Shown here: positions 1,897-15,238 of the stretch, in pieces
How positions within the stretch are numbered: position 1 is the stretch's first letter
How the letters are laid out: the number at the start of each line of letters is the position of its first letter
Source: a virus
Taxonomy: Duplodnaviria; Heunggongvirae; Uroviricota; Caudoviricetes
Direction: 5' to 3' (one strand)
Length of the DNA: 64,000 nt
IMG/VR virus record: IMGVR_UViG_2541047857_000014
The notes under the pieces: generated by a model
Database searches by the model: none
What the model saw: the letters and a program-made list of their open reading frames with translations, nothing else
Told to the model about the DNA's origin: nothing
Translations under genes and position numbers: made by a program

Positions 1897-4800
1897 GCGT
1901 CGTATCCCCCCTGATCGCTGTAGTTACTCCTGGCTTTTGCCTTCAGCCTGCGTTCACGTTCATCAAGCTGGCGTGCCACCTCCCGCGCAATATCCTGCGC
2001 ACTTTGTCCTGGCTGCGTCTGAATGATGATCTGCGTCGGTGCCTCAATCCGTTGAACGAGTGGCACAGTGGCTGCGCGACTCACAATTGCTTCTCCACCT
2101 TTCGCGGGAAGTGCCAAGGGGTGCAACGGTGGAAGCTCTGCTGGCGCGGCAGCAACGCCCATCATTCCGGCAACAACGGCAGCCAGTGCAGCTGTATTTC
2201 TCCGGCTGGTCACATTTGCCGGGCCGTTAACAATTTCCGGCCCGTTTTCACCGACGATGCCAAACTGCCCGCGCGGGATATACCCGCCGCTGTCATACAT
2301 CCCCGCAAAGCCATATCCCCATGATGGAAAACCACCCGATGGCATCATCACTTTACCGTCTGCATTCACCGTCGCAGGTTGCTGACGCGTCACGCTTTCC
2401 GGCAGTTTTGCCTTTGCGGCCTCTTTACTGACAATGCCGAGCTTCTCCAGCAACCAGGAAACGCCGGATTTCAGGGAGTCCAGCGGATGCATGACCATAT
2501 TCAGCCCTTCCGCCAGTGCCTCCCCGAATCGCCGCCCCATTGCCGCTGCGCTCTGCAGTTCGGCAGAGGTCGACTTAACGGGCGTCAGTAGATCAGTAAA
2601 CCAGCCCCACAGCGCCTGCACTTTGTCGCCAATCCACTGGAACACGGGCTTAAGCGGTTCGAACGCTGCACTGATGGGACCTGCCGCCGCTTTGAATCCT
2701 TCCACCACGCCACCGAGAAATGCGGTGATAGGTTGCCAGTATTTCCAGACAACCAGCGCCACGCCCGCCAGTGCAGTAACCACAAGACCTATCGGACTGA
2801 GCAGAGCACCTAACAGACCAGATATGGCATACAGGGCAACGCGCAGCATCGCCAGTGGACCAGATGCCAGTACTCGCAGCACCGTGCCTGCGGCGGCCAG
2901 TCCACCGCGCAGTACCGCCAGAGGATTCATAAACATCACAGCAACAGCACGTAAACCGGATAATCCAGACCGCAAAAGTGCAACCGGCGCACCTGCTACA
3001 GTTTTCAGGACATTTCCCGTCAGTGATGCCGTGCGGCGCAAAGACGACAACGGCGCAGTAAGTAAACCTGCGGCGTTGCCCGATGAAGCAAGCCCGCGTC
3101 GCAGCAGTGCCAGTGGTGCGCCAGCCAGCCAGGACAACGCGCTGCTGGTTCGAGTTACTGCTGCCGTAACGGAAGATAACGTTTTGATACCCAACACAGA
3201 GAATCCCAGACGGATCACTGCCAGCGGCCCCAGCACTGCAGCCAGCGCCACCGCTAAGGTGCCGAGGCCGACGGTAACCGCAGCCACAACAGCCGATGCT
3301 TTCATCAGTGTGCCTGTCAGTTCCGGGTTAGCTTCCACCCAGCGACGCAACGCCCCCGTGACGCTTTTCACCGTGTACAGAATATCCATCAGCGGCTGGC
3401 GCAGCGTTTCGCCCAGGCTGCTGAAGGTGTTCTGCGCTCCGGTTTTGACCAGCAACCACTGCGCAGAAAGTGAATCCTTGTTAATGTCGGATTCTTTCTG
3501 CATGGAGCCAAGCGCATCATTGCCCGCTGTCAGTTTTAACTGACGCTGCAGTTCCGGCAGGTTGTTTGCCAGTTTCGCCGCGTCATCGCCAAACTCTTTA
3601 CCAAACAACATAGTCATGGCAGACAGGCGCTTGTCCTGCGGCAGCGCGTTTACCTTCTCCAGCACGCGCTGGATGGTTCCCATCGCATCCTTCGTCATCT
3701 GCTTTTCAATCACTTCAGGATTGAGTTTCAGCAGATTCATCCCTTCAAAGAAACTCTTGCTTTGCATGGTGGCAATGGACAATTCACGCACCATCGCGTT
3801 TGCTGCACTGGCTGCAACCTCTGGCGCAGCGCCCAGTGTCAGGAAGGTGGAACCCAGCGCCGCCGCTTTACGATAATCCAGACGGTCAGCCACACCGCCC
3901 AGACGTTGCATCACATCAATGATGTCTGCCCCTTTCGACATGGCGTTATCATCCAGATAGTTCAGCGCATCACCGAGCTGTTCAATATTGCGGGTGGGGA
4001 TTTTGTAGAGCTGGGCGATTTTCCCCAGACTTTCTGACAGTTCATCCGCTGGCAGCTCAAAGGCTGTTGCCGCCTTTGCTGCCGTACTGGCGAAGGCCAG
4101 CAGGTCACGTTTCTGATCTTCCCAGCTGTCGTCAGGGTTTGCGACGTTCATGCGCGCACCACCTTCAACCAGTGCAGCGAAGTCCACCGCACCGTTTTCC
4201 ATCGGCAACTGTTCGCTGGCAGCCTTGATGGCATCCTGCATTTCATAAAAACGTGCAGTGCGGTTGCCATTATCGTCACGCAGACCACTGACCTGCTTTG
4301 CCACACCTTTCATGGCATCTTCCATGCTGGTATAGCTTTTTACTGCCGCCATCACTGGCGCACCCATTGCCAGCCCTGCAGCCGTGGTGGTGGCTCCGGC
4401 ACCTGCAATACGATCACGCACCTCCAGCGAACGGGCATAACTGGCACGCGCTGCATTCATCCTGCGCTGAGCTTCCCCCAGTCGCTTCAGCCGCGCCTCC
4501 TGTTTCGAAAGTTCCTGGTTATAACGTGATGTTTCACGGGCTAAACGGGCAGTTGCTCCCGCATCGTCTTTCGCAGAAATTCCCGCCCGGTACAGTTCAG
4601 CACGCACAAGCGCCGTCTGCCGCTGCAGCTTTTTCTGGCGTTCTTCCAGGCGCTGAACAGCCAGCCGTTGACGGCCCAGAGCAACAACCTGACGTTGCGA
4701 AGGCGGCCCCATCGCTCCCAGTTCCTGACTGAGCAAATTTGCACGCTGGCGGGCATAGTTCAGCCTGTCGCCTAATTTCTGATTTTCTGCCTGCAGCTTT

Positions 4801-4970
4801 CGGAAGCTGTCCAGACTGCTCCCGGCCTGATCAAGCTGCTTTATTGCATCGCGGGATTTTTTGACAGCAGCAGCCAGTTCTCTTGAACTGGCCTGCGCAG
4901 ATCGAAATGGGCGGGTGAGCTTGTCAACCGCATTAAGAATGACCTGCAGACGCAGGTTGTTATCACTCAT
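1893..4970 (-). CDS. T: tail tape measure protein T
   Basis: 1025-aa ORF with coiled-coil N-terminus and Ala/Gly/Leu-rich repetitive membrane-like core; position after E/E'. Confidence 0.85.
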   Translation of the reverse strand: MSDNNLRLQVILNAVDKLTRPFRSAQASSRELAAAVKKSRDAIKQLDQAGSSLDSFRKLQAENQKLGDRLNYARQRANLLSQELGAMGPPSQRQVVALGRQRLAVQRLEERQKKLQRQTALVRAELYRAGISAKDDAGATARLARETSRYNQELSKQEARLKRLGEAQRRMNAARASYARSLEVRDRIAGAGATTTAAGLAMGAPVMAAVKSYTSMEDAMKGVAKQVSGLRDDNGNRTARFYEMQDAIKAASEQLPMENGAVDFAALVEGGARMNVANPDDSWEDQKRDLLAFASTAAKAATAFELPADELSESLGKIAQLYKIPTRNIEQLGDALNYLDDNAMSKGADIIDVMQRLGGVADRLDYRKAAALGSTFLTLGAAPEVAASAANAMVRELSIATMQSKSFFEGMNLLKLNPEVIEKQMTKDAMGTIQRVLEKVNALPQDKRLSAMTMLFGKEFGDDAAKLANNLPELQRQLKLTAGNDALGSMQKESDINKDSLSAQWLLVKTGAQNTFSSLGETLRQPLMDILYTVKSVTGALRRWVEANPELTGTLMKASAVVAAVTVGLGTLAVALAAVLGPLAVIRLGFSVLGIKTLSSVTAAVTRTSSALSWLAGAPLALLRRGLASSGNAAGLLTAPLSSLRRTASLTGNVLKTVAGAPVALLRSGLSGLRAVAVMFMNPLAVLRGGLAAAGTVLRVLASGPLAMLRVALYAISGLLGALLSPIGLVVTALAGVALVVWKYWQPITAFLGGVVEGFKAAAGPISAAFEPLKPVFQWIGDKVQALWGWFTDLLTPVKSTSAELQSAAAMGRRFGEALAEGLNMVMHPLDSLKSGVSWLLEKLGIVSKEAAKAKLPESVTRQQPATVNADGKVMMPSGGFPSWGYGFAGMYDSGGYIPRGQFGIVGENGPEIVNGPANVTSRRNTAALAAVVAGMMGVAAAPAELPPLHPLALPAKGGEAIVSRAATVPLVQRIEAPTQIIIQTQPGQSAQDIAREVARQLDERERRLKAKARSNYSDQGGYDA

Positions 4971-5399
4971 CGTTGGCCCCGCTTCTCTGAATCGCTTTAT
5001 ACCGCCATTCCAGCACTTCGGTCAGCGGCATAACGTCAGTAACGGATGGCGGCCAGTGAAAAATGGTGGCGATATCTGCCACCAGATCGTCAACCGTCAG
5101 GCTGTCGGTAAACCGGCAAGCACCGACTTCTTCAATAAAAAAGTGACAACCTCAACCGACATGGCAGTGAGATCTGCCGGGTCCATCTCTGCAATTTCCT
5201 GTGCAGTCAGTGCCGGACTGGAGATGCGGGAGATCACGGTCATCATCGCGTTTACATCCATATCCATAATGGCCTGCAGGCGTGTACCGCGCAGCGCACC
5301 GGACTGCGGTTTACGCAGCACAATTTCGGTGATTTCTGTTTTACCGCGCTTGATGGGGGTATCCAGTTGAATGGTCTTTTCAGTCTGCTTATCGCTCAT
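4963..5399 (-). CDS. E': E+E' extended chaperone produced by programmed -1 frameshift
   Basis: Slippery T_TTT_TTA in E zero frame at 5136-5142 (minus strand); -1 frame stays open to TGA at 4963-4965, overlapping T start ATG 4968-4970. Confidence 0.6.
5097..5399 (-). CDS. E: tail assembly chaperone E
   Basis: 100-aa ORF directly upstream of T; contains slippery heptamer near 3' end. Confidence 0.8.
   Translation of the reverse strand: MSDKQTEKTIQLDTPIKRGKTEITEIVLRKPQSGALRGTRLQAIMDMDVNAMMTVISRISSPALTAQEIAEMDPADLTAMSVEVVTFLLKKSVLAGLPTA
5136..5142 (-). promoter_or_regulatory. -1 ribosomal frameshift slippery heptamer TTTTTTA (E/E')
   Basis: X_XXY_YYZ pattern in E reading frame, same arrangement as P2 E/E' and other tail chaperone pairs. 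Confidence 0.6.
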
Positions 5400-5453
5400 T
5401 TTGCTGTCCTGTCAATTGGGTTCTGGCGCGGTATCCCGCGCCGTTCAGATATA

Positions 5454-5969
5454 TCAGAGGCCGAGGGCGTTGCGGTGCGCTTCCATCAGGTCCACACCGT
5501 CCACAATTTCCACCATGTTGATAAGGTCCACTTCATAGAGCACCTCACCATTGATGGTCAGCTTCGCGTAGCTGTTGGTACTGGTCACTTTGGTGGTGTT
5601 GCTTTCGCCCGTCTTCCACTCGCCGGAATCCACTTCTTTGTGACGTCCACGCACGACAAGCTCCACGGCCTGCACTTCCCCGGTATCGTCACGCTGAATA
5701 GAGCCGGTAAAGCGCAGCTGGATGCCATCCACCGTGGCTTTACCCATCTGTTTAAACAGCAGCAATTCAGTACCACCAATGGAAAATTCTGTGTCCAGCG
5801 CACTGTCATCAAGCCCCAGATCCACATCCACCGCACCCGGCATTCCGCCGCCGCGATACTTCTCATATTTGCGGGTAAATTTCGGCAGCGTCAGCGACTC
5901 AACGATCCCCTGCCAGTTGTTCCCGTCGTTAAACAGGTTCAGGTGTTTTAATTTGCGTGGTAAAGCCAT
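5454..5969 (-). CDS. FII: tail tube protein FII
   Basis: 171-aa ORF downstream of sheath gene. Confidence 0.85.
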   Translation of the reverse strand: MALPRKLKHLNLFNDGNNWQGIVESLTLPKFTRKYEKYRGGGMPGAVDVDLGLDDSALDTEFSIGGTELLLFKQMGKATVDGIQLRFTGSIQRDDTGEVQAVELVVRGRHKEVDSGEWKTGESNTTKVTSTNSYAKLTINGEVLYEVDLINMVEIVDGVDLMEAHRNALGL

Positions 5970-10115: not shown

Positions 10116-11016
10116 CCGTTCCTCCGTTGGTTACGCTCCACTGCGTACATGATGCGGCCTGTGTTTTGTTCAGGACCACATCAGCCAGCGGTGAAGCCAG
10201 CTCCACACGTTGAACCCCCTCAACATGCAGCGCGGCAAAAATGGCACTACGGCGAATATCCCGACCAAGCCGCGTCTGACTGGCGATGTACTTCTGCAGG
10301 CTGGCTTTTGCCGCTGCCATTACCGGCTCTGCTTCGGGCCCCGGATAGAGAAAAATGGTGGCTTCCACGCGGTACGGGATGATTTCTGCGCTGCGAACCG
10401 TAAGACGGTCAGCCACCGGGCGGACGTTCTCACTGTTCAGGGCTTTCTCCACCACATCCAGCAGGTCTTTTTCTGCTGTTCCGTCGCCTTCGCGGCTAAG
10501 GACAGTCAGCACCACCTCTGCAGGTGCCGGGCTGGTTGCACTGGCATCCGCCACCCGACCGTCGGCGCTTCGGGCATGAAATTCATAAGCTGCAGTTGGC
10601 CCCGCAACTGAAAGCCCTTCAAAGGCTGCAGGCACACGCAGGCGTAACGCTTCATCACTTTCCATCACTGCCGCAACGGGCGGCACAGCGTCATTATCAG
10701 CAGGCGTCACCGTCAGGCGTTTCACGTTGTAATTGGCAGCGAGCTGGTCCAGATCGCTCCCTATGGCATAAGCCGCCATCACCGCCTGCGCGGCTTCGTT
10801 AATGCGCTGGCGCAGAAGCAACTCACGATAAGCGTTCTCCTGCAACAATTTGGTGACGGGTTCAGATTCCAGTTCCAGCGTGCGGATCACTGCTTCCTGC
10901 TCATCTTTCGGATGAAGCGCCACAAATTCTGCCTTGCGTTCGGCAAGCAGCGTCTCAAAGTCCGGCACATCCACAATCTGCGGTGCAGGCAACTGCGAAA
11001 GGTCAATCACTGCCAT
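10108..11016 (-). CDS. J: baseplate assembly protein J (start taken at MAVIDLSQLP)
   Basis: 302 aa from internal Met, matching P2 gpJ length; baseplate J-like. Confidence 0.8.
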   Translation of the reverse strand: MAVIDLSQLPAPQIVDVPDFETLLAERKAEFVALHPKDEQEAVIRTLELESEPVTKLLQENAYRELLLRQRINEAAQAVMAAYAIGSDLDQLAANYNVKRLTVTPADNDAVPPVAAVMESDEALRLRVPAAFEGLSVAGPTAAYEFHARSADGRVADASATSPAPAEVVLTVLSREGDGTAEKDLLDVVEKALNSENVRPVADRLTVRSAEIIPYRVEATIFLYPGPEAEPVMAAAKASLQKYIASQTRLGRDIRRSAIFAALHVEGVQRVELASPLADVVLNKTQAASCTQWSVTNGGTDE

Positions 11017-11362
11017 TCTCTGCTCCTGTTGATACGGAAAGGGACACAGGTACACCGTTATTCCGCCGCCCGGTCAGCTCCACCATCATTGAACCGTCAA
11101 AATTGCTGTTGATGGTGATGGAATCCAGCATCAGCCGTGGCTCCCAGCGACTCAGCGCCACATACACTGCCGACATGACCTGCAGGCGTAATGCCGGATT
11201 TTGTGGCTGATCTATCAGTGCCGACAGCAGGGAACCATATTCCCGGCGAGCAATGCGGCTACCCTGCGGTGTCAGCAGAATGTCCCGCACCGACTGGCGC
11301 AGATGGTCAATATCAGTAATGGCTTTACCGCTGGTATTGTTCATCCCGCTATAAAGCGTCAT
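11003..11362 (-). CDS. W: baseplate wedge protein W
   Basis: 119-aa ORF between V and J. Confidence 0.8.
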   Translation of the reverse strand: MTLYSGMNNTSGKAITDIDHLRQSVRDILLTPQGSRIARREYGSLLSALIDQPQNPALRLQVMSAVYVALSRWEPRLMLDSITINSNFDGSMMVELTGRRNNGVPVSLSVSTGAENGSD

Positions 11363-11937
11363 ACCGGGCCTCCGGTTGTATCGCCGCCTTTCAGGACGCC
11401 AGTATGCTGATGCGCATCAACCACGATCCCGTTAGAACTCATCGCACCGCCGCCCTGGGTAACGCCGCCATTGATCACTACTTCACTATTAATACGCGTG
11501 CGGTCAGCCTCCAGCACAAACTCACTGGTTTTCAGGGTGATATTGTCGGCAGCCTCAATAACCATGGATTTGATGCCCCTGACATACCAGCGCCCGGTGG
11601 CGGGTTCGTATTCAAACCAGCCACCGTCAGGATGTTCTGTCACGCAGGCGTCCGCCGACGTCGACGGTGGTGCGAACTGATTCGAATAGACAGCGGGCAG
11701 CGCAAAGGCGGTCTCCAGATTGCCGCCCAGACTCAGCAGCACCACCTGCTCACCTTCCGATGGTCGCCACCATGTCCGGGCATTCCCGGCACGCAGGGTC
11801 AGCCAGCTGATCCAGTTGGTTTCTAAGTCGCCTGTTTTCACCCGACAAAGCCAGTTTTCCCGGTCCACTTCGGTGACTACCCCAGTGCGGATCAGGTTGG
11901 TGATAAGGCGCATGATTTCGGTTAGTTGTGTGTTCAT
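11359..11937 (-). CDS. V: baseplate spike/assembly protein V
   Basis: 192-aa ORF, gpV-like. Confidence 0.8.
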   Translation of the reverse strand: MNTQLTEIMRLITNLIRTGVVTEVDRENWLCRVKTGDLETNWISWLTLRAGNARTWWRPSEGEQVVLLSLGGNLETAFALPAVYSNQFAPPSTSADACVTEHPDGGWFEYEPATGRWYVRGIKSMVIEAADNITLKTSEFVLEADRTRINSEVVINGGVTQGGGAMSSNGIVVDAHQHTGVLKGGDTTGGPV

Positions 11938-11982
11938 GAAAATAGACTGCTATATCTCAAAATTGAGAAGTAGCTTTGATAG

Positions 11983-12000
11983 TTGTATCACGGCTGTCAC
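11983..12000. promoter_or_regulatory. candidate Ogr-dependent late promoter dyad (TGT-N12-ACA) upstream of V
   Basis: tgtatcacggctgtcaca centred ~55 bp upstream of V start codon. Confidence 0.4.
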
Positions 12001-12075
12001 AAACAACTGGCAAAAAACGACTACTATCTATAAATTATTGAGAGTTATCTCATTAACAAAAAAGAAGCTTGGTAA

Positions 12076-13776
12076 ATGGAACACTTAAGACAACTGCAAA
12101 ATAAAACTTCCCTGTTAGAAAAGTACGGGACTAGTAACGCACATCTTTTATGGTCATTAGGTCTTTACTTAGATGAATCCGATTTTGATAAGCTAGCATC
12201 TGATGGACTTACTGATGGTGGAAACGATAAGAAAATAGACTTCATTACCGTAATTAATTCAACGTTATTTATTGCTCAGGGTTACTACTGCAATCAGCAA
12301 GCACTTAAAATAGTTGCGCCTGCAAATAAAGCTTCTGACTTAAACACTGCTTTAGCGTGGATTATGGCAGGCTCAGGAGAGTCTCCAAATGCAAAATTAA
12401 GAGCAAAAATTTCTGAGGTTAGAAAATTAATTGATGATAACGAAATTGAAGCTGTTGAATTATTATATATCCATAATTGTGCCGAATCTGAGCAGGTTAA
12501 AACTGAGCTTGAAACTTGTCGTGACTATCTAGCAGGTAGATTTGCAGACAAAGAAATTGAGGTAACTTACAGAGAACTTGGTGTTAATAGTCTTGAAAAA
12601 TTGTATATTGCGCTATCACAACAAATTGTTGTGACTGACAATATAAAGTTCAATGGCGAACTTATAAATTCTGTACAAGGTGATGGCTGGACTTCACATG
12701 TTGGCTTTGCAAACGGCACTTGGCTAAATTATTTATACAAAAATTATGGAGCAGAATTATTTTCTGCTAATTATAGGGGGTTCATGGGATTAAATAAGAG
12801 AAGAAAAATAAACTCATCAATTAAGAATACCGCAGAAACATCCCCAAAAGACTTCTTTGTCTTTAACAATGGTGTATCAATCCTAACAACAAAATTCAAC
12901 AAAGAAAAAGGGTTGTTGGAAGGAGTTTCAATCATAAATGGAGCTCAAACCACTGGTTCTATTGGTTCAGTTCAAGATATACAAAAATTAGATGGCCTAA
13001 AAGTCCTTTGTAAGGTTATTGAATGTAATGATGCGGACAAAGTAAAAAAAATAGTCCAGTATAATAATACTCAGAATCATATTACAACCTGGGATCACTA
13101 CTCTAACAGCACAGAACAAAAACAGGTGGCAGAAGAATTTTCCACTCTTGGTTATACATATTCACTGAAACGCGGCTTCGAAAATACTGGTTCTTTATTT
13201 GGCATTGAGTCTGTTGCTCAACCGCTGATAGCGTTACATGGGGATTATGTTAGCGCCAATAGAGGTAAAAACTACGTTTTCGATACAAAATCAGCCTATG
13301 ACAATGCCTTTCATGATTCGAAAGCCCAGCATATTTTATGTGCTTACACTATTTCAAAAGCTATAGAAAAAGTAAAATCTCAAATCCGTGCAAAAGAGAA
13401 TAAAATTAAAGTAGATGAGGATAACTTATTATTCCTCCAAAATTTAAAGTCTCGATTCTTTTTAATATCCGTCATCGGAGAAATACTTGAAGAATTAACA
13501 GATAAACCTTTGAACAAGAAGAAAATAAAATATAAATATGATACAGCATTATCTAAAAATAACTCTCTGGATGATTTAATCGACCTTTGGACACCAGTTA
13601 TAACTGCGATATTACCACATGTTATCCGTGTTTCAGGTCAAGATTTAACCACCTACTTATCTGTAACAGACAACCCGTTATCTATCGTATCAAAGGAAGT
13701 TAAAAACATATTAACATCCTTAAAAGCGTTCCAACCGATTGAGCCATTAATTACTCTTTCAAATCACCTTGAATAA
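12076..13776 (+). CDS. cargo gene in S-V hotspot: 566-aa putative abortive-infection/defence protein (AIPR-like by motif memory)
   Basis: Only plus-strand gene inside a minus-strand late operon; visibly AT-rich; own AT-rich upstream region; motifs FFVFNNGVSI and GVSIINGAQTTGS. Confidence 0.6.
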   Translation: MEHLRQLQNKTSLLEKYGTSNAHLLWSLGLYLDESDFDKLASDGLTDGGNDKKIDFITVINSTLFIAQGYYCNQQALKIVAPANKASDLNTALAWIMAGSGESPNAKLRAKISEVRKLIDDNEIEAVELLYIHNCAESEQVKTELETCRDYLAGRFADKEIEVTYRELGVNSLEKLYIALSQQIVVTDNIKFNGELINSVQGDGWTSHVGFANGTWLNYLYKNYGAELFSANYRGFMGLNKRRKINSSIKNTAETSPKDFFVFNNGVSILTTKFNKEKGLLEGVSIINGAQTTGSIGSVQDIQKLDGLKVLCKVIECNDADKVKKIVQYNNTQNHITTWDHYSNSTEQKQVAEEFSTLGYTYSLKRGFENTGSLFGIESVAQPLIALHGDYVSANRGKNYVFDTKSAYDNAFHDSKAQHILCAYTISKAIEKVKSQIRAKENKIKVDEDNLLFLQNLKSRFFLISVIGEILEELTDKPLNKKKIKYKYDTALSKNNSLDDLIDLWTPVITAILPHVIRVSGQDLTTYLSVTDNPLSIVSKEVKNILTSLKAFQPIEPLITLSNHLE

Positions 13777-13778
13777 AT

Positions 13779-13805
13779 AACGGGTGGCCTCCTAGGCCAC
13801 CCGTT
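13779..13805. terminator. bidirectional hairpin terminator between cargo gene and S
   Basis: perfect inverted repeat aacgggtggcc-tccta-ggccacccgtt. Confidence 0.6.
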
Positions 13806-13831
13806 CATAACTTATTTTTAATCTAAAATTT

Positions 13832-14290
13832 TTACGGCTTATTGTTATTAATTAACCATTGATAAAAAACATTCTTAACGTTGTTCTCAATATCATTGTT
13901 AATACCCAACAAACGCCGCTCTGCATACCGTACGTCCGGTCCTTTGCGACTGACGCGATCACGCAGACCGTAATGGTGAACACGGGCAATGCGCTGTACC
14001 TTACCTTCAAACTGCACGCTGGCAGAGTCGGCGCTGGCGGCAGTTTTCAGGTATTTTGTGGTGCGCAGCTTTGCAAACATCTGACGTTTGATACGGCCTT
14101 TTTTACTGCGTGCTGTTACCCGTCGCGGTTCATAGCTGCTGCCGTCAGGGTTGCGCTGCATCCTGATATTCTGCTGCTGTGTCCGGCGAAGTTCCTGCGC
14201 CAGCTGGCGCATCATGCGGCTTCTCGAGGCTGGTTCCAGATTCGCCAGCAAGGCACTCAGCCAGTCGTCCACCTTCTGCAGTTCAGCCAC
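13832..14290 (-). CDS. S: tail completion protein S
   Basis: 152-aa ORF, gpS-like. Confidence 0.8.
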   Translation of the reverse strand: MAELQKVDDWLSALLANLEPASRSRMMRQLAQELRRTQQQNIRMQRNPDGSSYEPRRVTARSKKGRIKRQMFAKLRTTKYLKTAASADSASVQFEGKVQRIARVHHYGLRDRVSRKGPDVRYAERRLLGINNDIENNVKNVFYQWLINNNKP

Positions 14291-14735
14291 ATTTCACCGT
14301 CCACATTTCTTCAGGTGCATCAGGTTCCGCTATAGCTTCAACGCTCGACACACTGCCGTCAGTGCTGACCAGCACACGTTCCGTCAGTTGCAGGTTCAGG
14401 CTGATATCACAGACATCGTTGCGCAGAATATCCACCTCAAAGGTGAATAGCTTTTCCCGTAACGCCGGGTTATTGATGGCATCGGGCTGGTTATCCCTCA
14501 GCCACAGCAAAACCGGGGCCATCAGCAGATTCTGGTCGCCGCTGAAATCCTCAATCACCGCGTTCAGTGTGTAACGGTACTCCCACGACATGGAGCTGGC
14601 CCCCGTGGCAACCAGCGAACCGTTATCCACAAACAGATGCAGTTTGTCCGGGTTATTGCGGACATAAGGCACCGCTTTATTGAGGGCGTGGCGCAGGGAT
14701 TGTGGTTTGTTCACTGTTTCGCTCCTGACACGCAA
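14283..14735 (-). CDS. R: tail completion protein R
   Basis: 150-aa ORF, gpR-like. Confidence 0.8.
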   Translation of the reverse strand: MRVRSETVNKPQSLRHALNKAVPYVRNNPDKLHLFVDNGSLVATGASSMSWEYRYTLNAVIEDFSGDQNLLMAPVLLWLRDNQPDAINNPALREKLFTFEVDILRNDVCDISLNLQLTERVLVSTDGSVSSVEAIAEPDAPEEMWTVKCG

Positions 14736-14967
14736 TAATCATGTCCACTTTGTCTGCACAGACCGCCCAGGCGGCCTCCGTTTCATCCAGCAACGCGTTC
14801 AGATCACCGTTAGTGCGCGGCGTTGCCTGATCCAGCCGACACGGCGTCACTCGCGGACAACCACTGACGGTAAGCCATACCTCCGGTGAGTGCCGGACGT
14901 TTCCGCAGCCGGATAATGTCAGCAGGCAAAGGAGTATCAGCCCAGCGGCGTAAATCCTCGTTCTCAC
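14677..14967 (-). CDS. lysC: LysC o-spanin (Rz1-like lipoprotein) embedded in lysB
   Basis: 96 aa with signal peptide and lipobox LTLSGC, out of frame inside lysB as in P2. Confidence 0.7.
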   Translation of the reverse strand: MRTRIYAAGLILLCLLTLSGCGNVRHSPEVWLTVSGCPRVTPCRLDQATPRTNGDLNALLDETEAAWAVCADKVDMIIACQERNSEQTTIPAPRPQ

Positions 14968-15238
14968 GTTTCAGTTCCTCGATCCGGTGTTGTCGTTGTC
15001 TCAGCAGCGTGCTGGTCTGTTCTGCTTCGGCATAGAGCCGCGCCTGCTCCCGGTTATTGGTTTCAGTCAGAATGGACAGGCTGATAAGCTGGCTATTGCT
15101 CTTTGCCAGTGCCTGGCTTTTGCTCTGCAGCTCGTCTGCCTGCGTGCTGATGGTCTGGCTGGCATCAGCCAGCCGCCACGTCTGCCAGCCCAGCGCCGCC
15201 AGTAATAACGTCAGCACAACCAGCAGCAACCGGTTCAT
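14810..15238 (-). CDS. lysB: LysB i-spanin (Rz-like)
   Basis: 142 aa, N-terminal TM helix then coiled coil. Confidence 0.75.
   Translation of the reverse strand: MNRLLLVVLTLLLAALGWQTWRLADASQTISTQADELQSKSQALAKSNSQLISLSILTETNNREQARLYAEAEQTSTLLRQRQHRIEELKRENEDLRRWADTPLPADIIRLRKRPALTGGMAYRQWLSASDAVSAGSGNAAH

Follow-up and report, generated by a model that had tools for sequence, protein, structure and literature searches.

The question raised by the locus described here is why a block of late phage genes that otherwise runs in a single direction should contain one AT-rich gene read from the opposite strand, and what that gene might do for the element carrying it. The locus lies in a stretch of 64,000 nucleotides from a Caudoviricetes record (IMG/VR IMGVR_UViG_2541047857_000014), the whole of which is referred to below as the window, and belongs to a P2/186-like prophage integrated adjoining ssrA in an S88-type Escherichia coli chromosome. 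Between its tail genes V and S, this prophage carries a gene of the AIPR/AbiU family, which we regard as probably a horizontally acquired, single-gene, nuclease-based defense cargo in the position known in P2 as the orf30 slot. As such it is an ordinary case of prophage defense cargo in a P2-like E. coli prophage, and one already annotated, since the RefSeq name of the S88 gene is 'AIPR family protein.'

A sequence-only reading of the window had described a 566-aa, AT-rich, plus-strand open reading frame (ORF) between V and S, and the ORF list, the base composition, and the Pfam matches of the flanking genes bear out each part of this description. GC content is 0.33–0.36 across the ORF (0.34 overall), compared with 0.52–0.60 in the flanking tail genes. 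The further statement that every late gene from ogr to O except this one lies on the minus strand agrees with the E. coli S88 record, which is 100% identical. The same reading had guessed at a relationship to AIPR proteins, and profile searches support the guess. Pfam PF10592 is matched at 90.9 bits (gathering cut-off 25; E 1.6e-25) over aa 229–498 and profile positions 1–289 of 308, and all 26 aligned homologs match this family as well. Among defense models, PADLOC AbiU (PDLC02357) is matched with E 1.7e-24 and 84.9 bits over aa 115–511 and profile positions 138–513 of 537, approximately 70% of both, while PHROG 1841, 'Abi alpha-like abortive infection mechanism,' is matched over the full length (E 4e-146). 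The two motifs that had suggested the family are present, FFVFNNGVSI at aa 259–268 and GVSIINGAQTTGS at aa 283–295, and both fall on invariant family columns. More broadly, the AIPR core motifs S-x-N-x-R, F-x3-NNG, I-x-NG-x-QT, NN-x-QN, and D-x2-S are invariant across homologs with 20–84% identity, and the start codon is conserved among homologs in the context M-x-H-L.

Comparison with relatives identifies the gene as cargo. An empty site, in which only 68 bp separate the start codon of V from the stop codon of S, is found at this position in the nearest phages and in the majority of related E. coli prophages. Escherichia phage 500465-1, Klebsiella phage 4LV2017, and many others share approximately 94% identity in V and S and match the flanks only (gpV itself is 94–96% identical to its relatives). 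The V–S interval of the window (11938–13831, 1,894 bp) is 100% identical in E. coli S88, MS7163, and N53. On the left, divergence from the empty-site phages begins directly after the ATG of V; on the right, nucleotide homology restarts at approximately 13885, within S, so that an imported module of ~1.95 kb (~11938–13885) stands in for the 68-bp spacer. The C-terminal ~20 residues of S consequently differ, reading INNDIENNVKNVFYQWLINNNKP in the window and VNDDVEAMTRDMILQWLAG in the empty-site phages. No transposon-type terminal inverted repeats or target duplications bounding the cargo were recovered in a repeat search. Transposition was therefore rejected, and the module was most plausibly acquired by cassette exchange through recombination in the flanking tail genes.

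That the S–V interval is a variable locus, as the sequence-only reading had stated, is documented for P2-like phages, in which it is the position of orf30 (PMC3091744, PMC6823313). The present gene has the properties expected of orf30-slot cargo: a layout like that of P2, an empty site in close relatives, and a GC content of 0.34. The accompanying claim that the slot often carries defense genes is only partly documented. Among 5,426 complete E. coli genomes, related V and S flanks were found in 1,042, and occupancy was assessed in evenly spaced picks from the ranking of these flanks, of which 54 rows with both flanks were kept. In this sample, 34 of the 54 slots (~63%) are the empty 68-bp gap and 20 hold inserts of ~0.5–1.9 kb, found in either orientation. 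The fillers are mostly hypothetical proteins, alongside TIR, a P-loop ATPase (Sll1717 family) with a hypothetical protein, FRG, DUF6216, and PcfJ. The DUF6216 filler sits in the S–V slot of REL606 and BL21. In E. coli ATCC 8739, the S gene beside the P-loop ATPase cargo is annotated as frameshifted (locus 2502–2923); S may occasionally be damaged when cargo is exchanged here.

The AIPR gene occupies the S–V slot in nine genomes, four with the studied allele and five with a second allele. The studied module is 99.9–100% identical in its 4 of 5,426 complete E. coli genomes. The second allele, in the same slot, shares 83.6% amino acid and 75.3% nucleotide identity with the studied gene and brings a further S C-terminus. 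The last ~20 codons of S (window 13832–13900) accordingly occur in three versions, those of the empty site, the first AIPR allele, and the second, all of which keep ...(Q/G)WL...; each S–V cassette apparently comes with an S C-terminus of its own. Between the two alleles, pN is 0.103 and pS 0.772, the latter saturated, giving a pN/pS of 0.13; the regional values are 0.15 in the N-terminal domain, 0.09 in the core, and 0.29 in the C-terminal tail. The AIPR gene is therefore functional and strongly constrained, and no decaying passenger.

The wider family is dispersed both phylogenetically and among types of replicon. Full-length homologs (~570 aa) occur in Proteobacteria, Firmicutes, Bacteroidota, and Cyanobacteria. 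A Klebsiella plasmid copy is 76% identical (among the matches listed), and 41 plasmid records, mostly from Klebsiella, fall at 60–80% identity; a further homolog lies on an Arthrobacter plasmid. An Aeromonas chromosomal copy, 58% identical, is next to thrC, and a Pantoea ananatis homolog, 80% identical, lies beside rather than within a P2-like prophage, flanked by mug/UDG and the prophage end. No conserved neighbor gene was found across the prophage, plasmid, and chromosomal contexts examined, which fits a single-gene system. On the Klebsiella pneumoniae plasmid NZ_CP009116, the AIPR copy adjoins an IS3 transposase with a NACHT-domain gene nearby, and this neighborhood may be a small plasmid defense island. 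The Pantoea homolog has ~1.3 kb without called genes on either side; this copy may be left over from phage-borne copies or may have given rise to them.

An AlphaFold2 model built from the 26 homologs (mean pLDDT 82.6) suggests a protein of three parts. In the predicted structure, the N-terminal domain has a restriction-endonuclease-like alpha/beta fold, and its top fold matches include the modification-dependent enzymes MspJI and AspBHI. The AIPR core that follows is probably a ParB/Srx-like, nucleotide- or DNA-binding switch, and a helical C-terminal region completes the protein. Residues of the N-terminal domain that are invariant down to 20% identity are D47, D51, D55, Q68, H133, N134, and E144; those of the core are S230, N232, R234, N264, N265, G266, N288, G289, Q291, T292, N330, N331, Q333, N334, and D340. 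From the sequence and the predicted order of secondary-structure elements, rather than a superposition, D55 would be the first catalytic Asp by strand order.

The regulatory layout around the gene closely resembles that of P2. In the P2 reference record, S is followed by a 'putative rho-independent terminator for O operon,' then by the oppositely oriented orf30, the pV activator binding site, and V, whose transcription start is annotated at its first base; the window matches this S–terminator–orf30–activator site–V arrangement in both order and spacing. A TGT-N12-ACA dyad, the consensus of P2 late promoters, is centered 55.5 nt from the ATG of V, a distance equal to that between the annotated P2 activator site and the V transcription start, and occurs at the same offset in empty-site phages and in the second AIPR allele. 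In phage 500465-1 (empty site, locus ~2184–2201), the activator site of the late promoter P_V takes the form of an extended and almost perfect palindrome, TGTATCAG-TG-CTGATACA. The palindromic P_V site of the empty-site phages stops 4 nt short of the S stop codon, and these phages, unlike P2 and the window, have no terminator hairpin between S and V.

The hairpin between the AIPR and S genes had been taken for a terminator closing the AIPR gene. Its perfect stem stands: the predicted folding energies of the plus strand (-22.6 kcal/mol, z -5.9) and the minus strand (-24.4 kcal/mol, z -5.2) were equalled by none of 200 shuffles (0/200). That it closes the AIPR gene holds only in part. A consensus terminator scan called the hairpin on the minus strand only, where its tail is ATTTATTCAA, while the T-run of the plus strand starts 9 nt past the stem, and the hairpin's position matches that of the P2 O-operon terminator. 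The hairpin therefore ends S at least as plausibly as it ends the AIPR gene. It is likely a convergent, bidirectional terminator or an O-operon terminator; it probably ends the O...S operon, and may end the AIPR transcript too. The stem core GGGTGGC/GCCACCC is kept in the diverged second allele. An Rfam scan of 11000–15000 returned sub-threshold noise only, centered on the hairpin. On the other side of the gene, a candidate promoter and a weak Shine–Dalgarno sequence, both read by eye, may belong to the AIPR gene; the region containing them (12007..12067) is poorly conserved in the second allele.

Taken together, these observations are best accounted for by defense cargo, and for expression, anti-phage and nuclease activity, the trigger, and cell survival, we infer the following course. 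Homologous recombination with another P2-like phage is the most likely source of the module, which brings its own P_V activator site, the opposite-strand AIPR gene, the hairpin, and its own last ~20 codons of S. In the lysogen, the gene would probably be transcribed from its own weak candidate promoter, with the hairpin insulating it from late transcription. The protein would act alone, its helical C-terminus and ParB-like core sensing infection or gating activity. Infection by a competing phage would activate it, and the N-terminal nuclease-fold domain would then attack nucleic acid. The expected outcome would be an early block of the infecting phage, from which the cell may or may not survive, in parallel with the lactococcal AbiUi, which delays phage transcription (PMC13064643).

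Several results weigh against this explanation. Foldseek against the Protein Data Bank (PDB) returned nothing at E <= 0.001, the best-probability match being a CdiA-CT toxin (0.66); a PDB sequence-profile search with the family alignment gave zero matches; a permissive Pfam scan of the 26 family members at E up to 10 gave noise only, with no nuclease or ParB family; and aligning the family with the FokI cleavage domain in hhalign gave a probability of 0.3%. The domain-only model of the AIPR core is of low confidence, and the PADLOC AbiU profile leaves the N-terminal 114 aa uncovered. At the (D/E)xK position, the canonical D...(D/E)xK pattern gives way to an invariant Q68-G-Y70, for which a distant P4/Aggregatibacter subfamily has Q-S-K, and in place of the GxxR nucleotide-binding box the core has N288-G-A-Q-T-T293, without the arginine. 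Both sites would therefore be non-canonical, if they are active at all. These results can also be read to mean that the nuclease-like domain is catalytically dead and serves DNA binding or oligomerization, the effector being the ParB-like core, or the protein binding and blocking without cleavage. Besides the unusual residues at the (D/E)xK position, where the distant subfamily keeps Q-S-K, and the absence of a nuclease signature at the sequence level, this reading draws on the AbiU phenotype, which is delayed transcription and not DNA loss, and on the description of the AIPR core itself as a 'ParB superfamily nuclease domain' (Makarova 2013). We nevertheless consider it unlikely, given that seven charged or polar N-terminal residues are invariant across 20–84% identity, as befits an active site, that the N-terminal domain has a pN/pS of only 0.15, and that the invariant K85 in the NKASDLN helix might supply the missing lysine. 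The same protein could also work by a different logic, as an enzyme that restricts phage directly and without suicide of the cell. In such a 'reverse GmrSD/SspE' design, the nuclease would be gated by a ParB-like NTP switch and would cut incoming, perhaps modified, phage DNA, sparing the host instead of bringing about abortive infection. Type IV enzymes and SspE are built by pairing a ParB/DUF262-type module with a nuclease, the modification-dependent MspJI and AspBHI are among the top fold matches, and linkage of AbiU1/AIPR to restriction–modification (R-M) systems has been reported (PMC3506569, PMC3632139). However, the AbiU name and the sole phenotype data (delayed transcription and weak protection) stem from abortive-infection screens, R-M or modification genes are not adjacent to the window copy, and the domain order and motifs are unlike those of GmrSD; such an enzyme is possible, if doubtful.

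Other points against it concern expression and anti-phage activity of the AIPR gene. The consensus scan called no sigma-70 promoter upstream of the AIPR gene. AT-rich cargo is often silenced by H-NS, and a GC content of 0.34 is typical of H-NS targets; the AIPR gene may be silenced in this way. The gene for the replication endonuclease gpA (~24959–27399, minus strand) is annotated as a frameshifted pseudogene in S88 RefSeq, and the prophage may be replication-defective. The lactococcal AbiU reduces plating only 10- to 100-fold (PMC13064643), and a P4-borne AIPR cloned as pFR77 was not among the seven systems validated by Rousset et al. (2022); the pFR77 protein is, however, only 30% identical to the window protein, over 158 core residues only, and its negative result therefore transfers weakly. 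Several of these points, namely the uncalled promoter, the low GC content, the P4 clone, and a gpA frameshift that may signal a decaying element, together with the presence of close homologs on many Klebsiella plasmids, would also suit a gene that is not a defense gene in this host: a silent or selfish passenger (for example, one silenced by H-NS), a factor in prophage or plasmid maintenance, or a means of excluding plasmids or transforming DNA. Such a role is improbable. Purifying selection is strong between two alleles kept in one phage slot, the AIPR reading frame is unbroken over its full length, PADLOC, DefenseFinder, and PHROGs all list the family as defense, and a validated defense family, PD-T7-1, is co-resident in the prophage.

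A more far-reaching proposal, which we offer tentatively and would not expect to hold as a whole, combines mechanism and mobility. The ~570-aa subfamily of PHROG 1841 would constitute a mechanistically distinct nuclease gated by a nucleotide switch, in which a PD-(D/E)xK-fold domain has a rewired active site (D47/D51/D55...Q68-x-Y70, plus a lysine from the NKASDLN helix) under arginine-less, ParB/Srx-like control; and the S–V slot would be a fourth defense hotspot of P2-like phages, whose cassettes move as units with the P_V site, the terminator, and the S C-terminus, coupling cargo exchange to tail-gene recombination.

Table 1. Coordinates of the AIPR locus and other features of the prophage (positions in the window; aa, positions in the AIPR protein)
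Feature	Position	Strand	Details
AIPR/AbiU-family gene, WP_000400690.1 in E. coli S88	12076..13776	+	566 aa, ATG start; ORF list
gpV baseplate spike gene, left flank	11359..11937	-	PF04717 + Apex
gpS tail completion gene, right flank, then gpR	13832..14290	-	PF05069, E 7.6e-41
AT-rich replaced 3' end of S, right edge of imported module	13832..13884	-	homology break
Hairpin between convergent AIPR and S genes	13779..13805	.	perfect 12-bp GC-rich stem, 3-nt loop
TGT-N12-ACA dyad, presumed Ogr/B activator site of late promoter P_V	11984..12001	-	sequence TGTATCACGGCTGTCACA
Candidate AIPR promoter CTGGCA-N16-TATAAA	12007-12034	+	read by eye; not called by consensus scan
Weak Shine–Dalgarno AAGAAG	12062-12067	+	by eye, 8 nt before AIPR ATG
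N-terminal alpha/beta domain, predicted PD-(D/E)xK nuclease-like fold	12178..12759	+	aa ~35-228
AIPR core with NNG, NGAQTT, and NNTQN motifs	12760..13569	+	Pfam match aa 229-498
C-terminal helical region, least constrained part	13570..13773	+	aa 499-566, all-helical, pLDDT > 88
A-Q (old/tin) hotspot gene, RefSeq 'hypothetical'	22642-24051	-	469 aa; PADLOC PD-T7-1 full length, E 1.3e-196
407-aa ORF directly after integrase	32106-33329	+	Pfam, PADLOC: no match

The prophage carries further candidate cargo (Table 1). The gene in its A–Q (old/tin) hotspot, in addition to the full-length PD-T7-1 match, has a weaker match to PD-T7-5 and no Pfam family. The clone pFR103 of Rousset, derived from S88, was considered as this A–Q gene and rejected on account of its differing sequence, which points to another S88 element as its origin. 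The ORF directly after the integrase lies at a position of some precedent, the integrase–att position being a minor defense hotspot of P2 (PMC13586616).

Published work already covers the family, the locus, and the concept, the gene is correctly named in RefSeq, and its identification opens no new question. Defense cargo in hotspots of P2-like phages is an established idea (Rousset 2022; PMC9122126), and both the occurrence of AbiU in P2 and P4 elements and the existence of defense hotspots within P2 tail genes have been described (PMC13586616). What this study adds are the exact boundaries of the module; the cassette-specific P_V site, hairpin, and S C-terminus; a second allele with strong purifying selection; and the non-canonical residues at both putative active sites. 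It documents a further instance of anti-phage cargo in a temperate phage, located in the less-studied S–V (orf30) slot rather than the well-mined A–Q hotspot, and a single prophage with two defense-type genes, of PD-T7-1 and AIPR/AbiU type, at two hotspots. The practical value is modest: a compact, single-gene construct of ~1.9 kb with its native terminator, and a list of invariant residues that may serve mutagenesis in a widespread family without a solved structure or known mechanism. The S–V slot could also be mined for cargo, given the TIR, FRG, P-loop ATPase, and many hypothetical proteins found there.

Several known systems invite comparison with the AIPR gene of the window. The ParB/Srx-fold NTP-binding modules DndB and DUF262 (the N-terminal domains of GmrS, BrxU, and SspE), which belong to defense linked to DNA modification, have no sequence-level match to the window protein, which lacks the box arginine and has its PD-(D/E)xK-like nuclease domain at the N-terminus, in contrast to a C-terminal HNH/DUF1524 domain. 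MzaE of the MZA system shares the AIPR core (NF041935, 1.3e-13; PADLOC MzaE, 5e-09), with a match limited to aa 213–349 of the window protein. Membership in MzaE was rejected: the score for NCBIfam NF041935 is 50.3 bits where 1050 are required, and the neighbors of the gene are phage tail genes, without MzaA–D. P2 orf30, a nonessential gene, occupies the identical slot with an identical layout, lies on the opposite strand, and is equally AT-rich (GC 0.34), but its product, Orf30, is a protein of 261 aa without a Pfam family and unrelated in sequence. The sequence-only reading had named, as the outcome that would count against it, the lack of any AIPR or other defense-family match together with clear homology to a conserved P2 protein of this slot; the best blastp match between the AIPR protein and Orf30 has E 1.9 over 12 residues, and an Orf30 homolog was rejected (E > 1).

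Also comparable are the AIPR proteins in the A–Q (old/tin) hotspot of Klebsiella P2-like phages (e.g., ST512-KPC3phi13.2) and that of the P4 satellite from E. coli E1167 cloned as pFR77, which share with the window protein its family, its three-part architecture, and the N-terminal D-x3-D-x3-D...Q motif. The Klebsiella genes are cargo of the same phage lineage in a different hotspot, A–Q rather than S–V, and their products are 28–31% identical to the window protein (tblastn, 31.3%; family alignment, 28%). At the Q-G-Y of the window protein, the P4/Aggregatibacter subfamily reads Q-S-K. The annotated AIPR coding sequence of ST512-KPC3phi13.2 (NC_049452; 481 aa, locus 4259–5704) looks 5'-truncated, and a 582-aa ORF from a GTG at 3956 (3956–5704) includes the motifs conserved in the N-terminal domain (TDGHDDKKCD...AQCY...APANKASDLN).

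A further counterpart is AbiU of Lactococcus lactis (AbiUi/AbiU1, pND001), the 'AbiU' type of PADLOC and DefenseFinder. The window gene differs from it in having no AbiUii/HEPN partner gene, in its first ~114 residues, which lie outside the AbiU profile, and in its carrier, a P2-like prophage in a Gram-negative host as opposed to a lactococcal plasmid, the likeness itself being judged by profile. Both are single-protein systems of ~570 aa that contain an AIPR core and travel on mobile elements, and in both the predicted N-terminal structure resembles FokI (PMC13064643 for AbiU).

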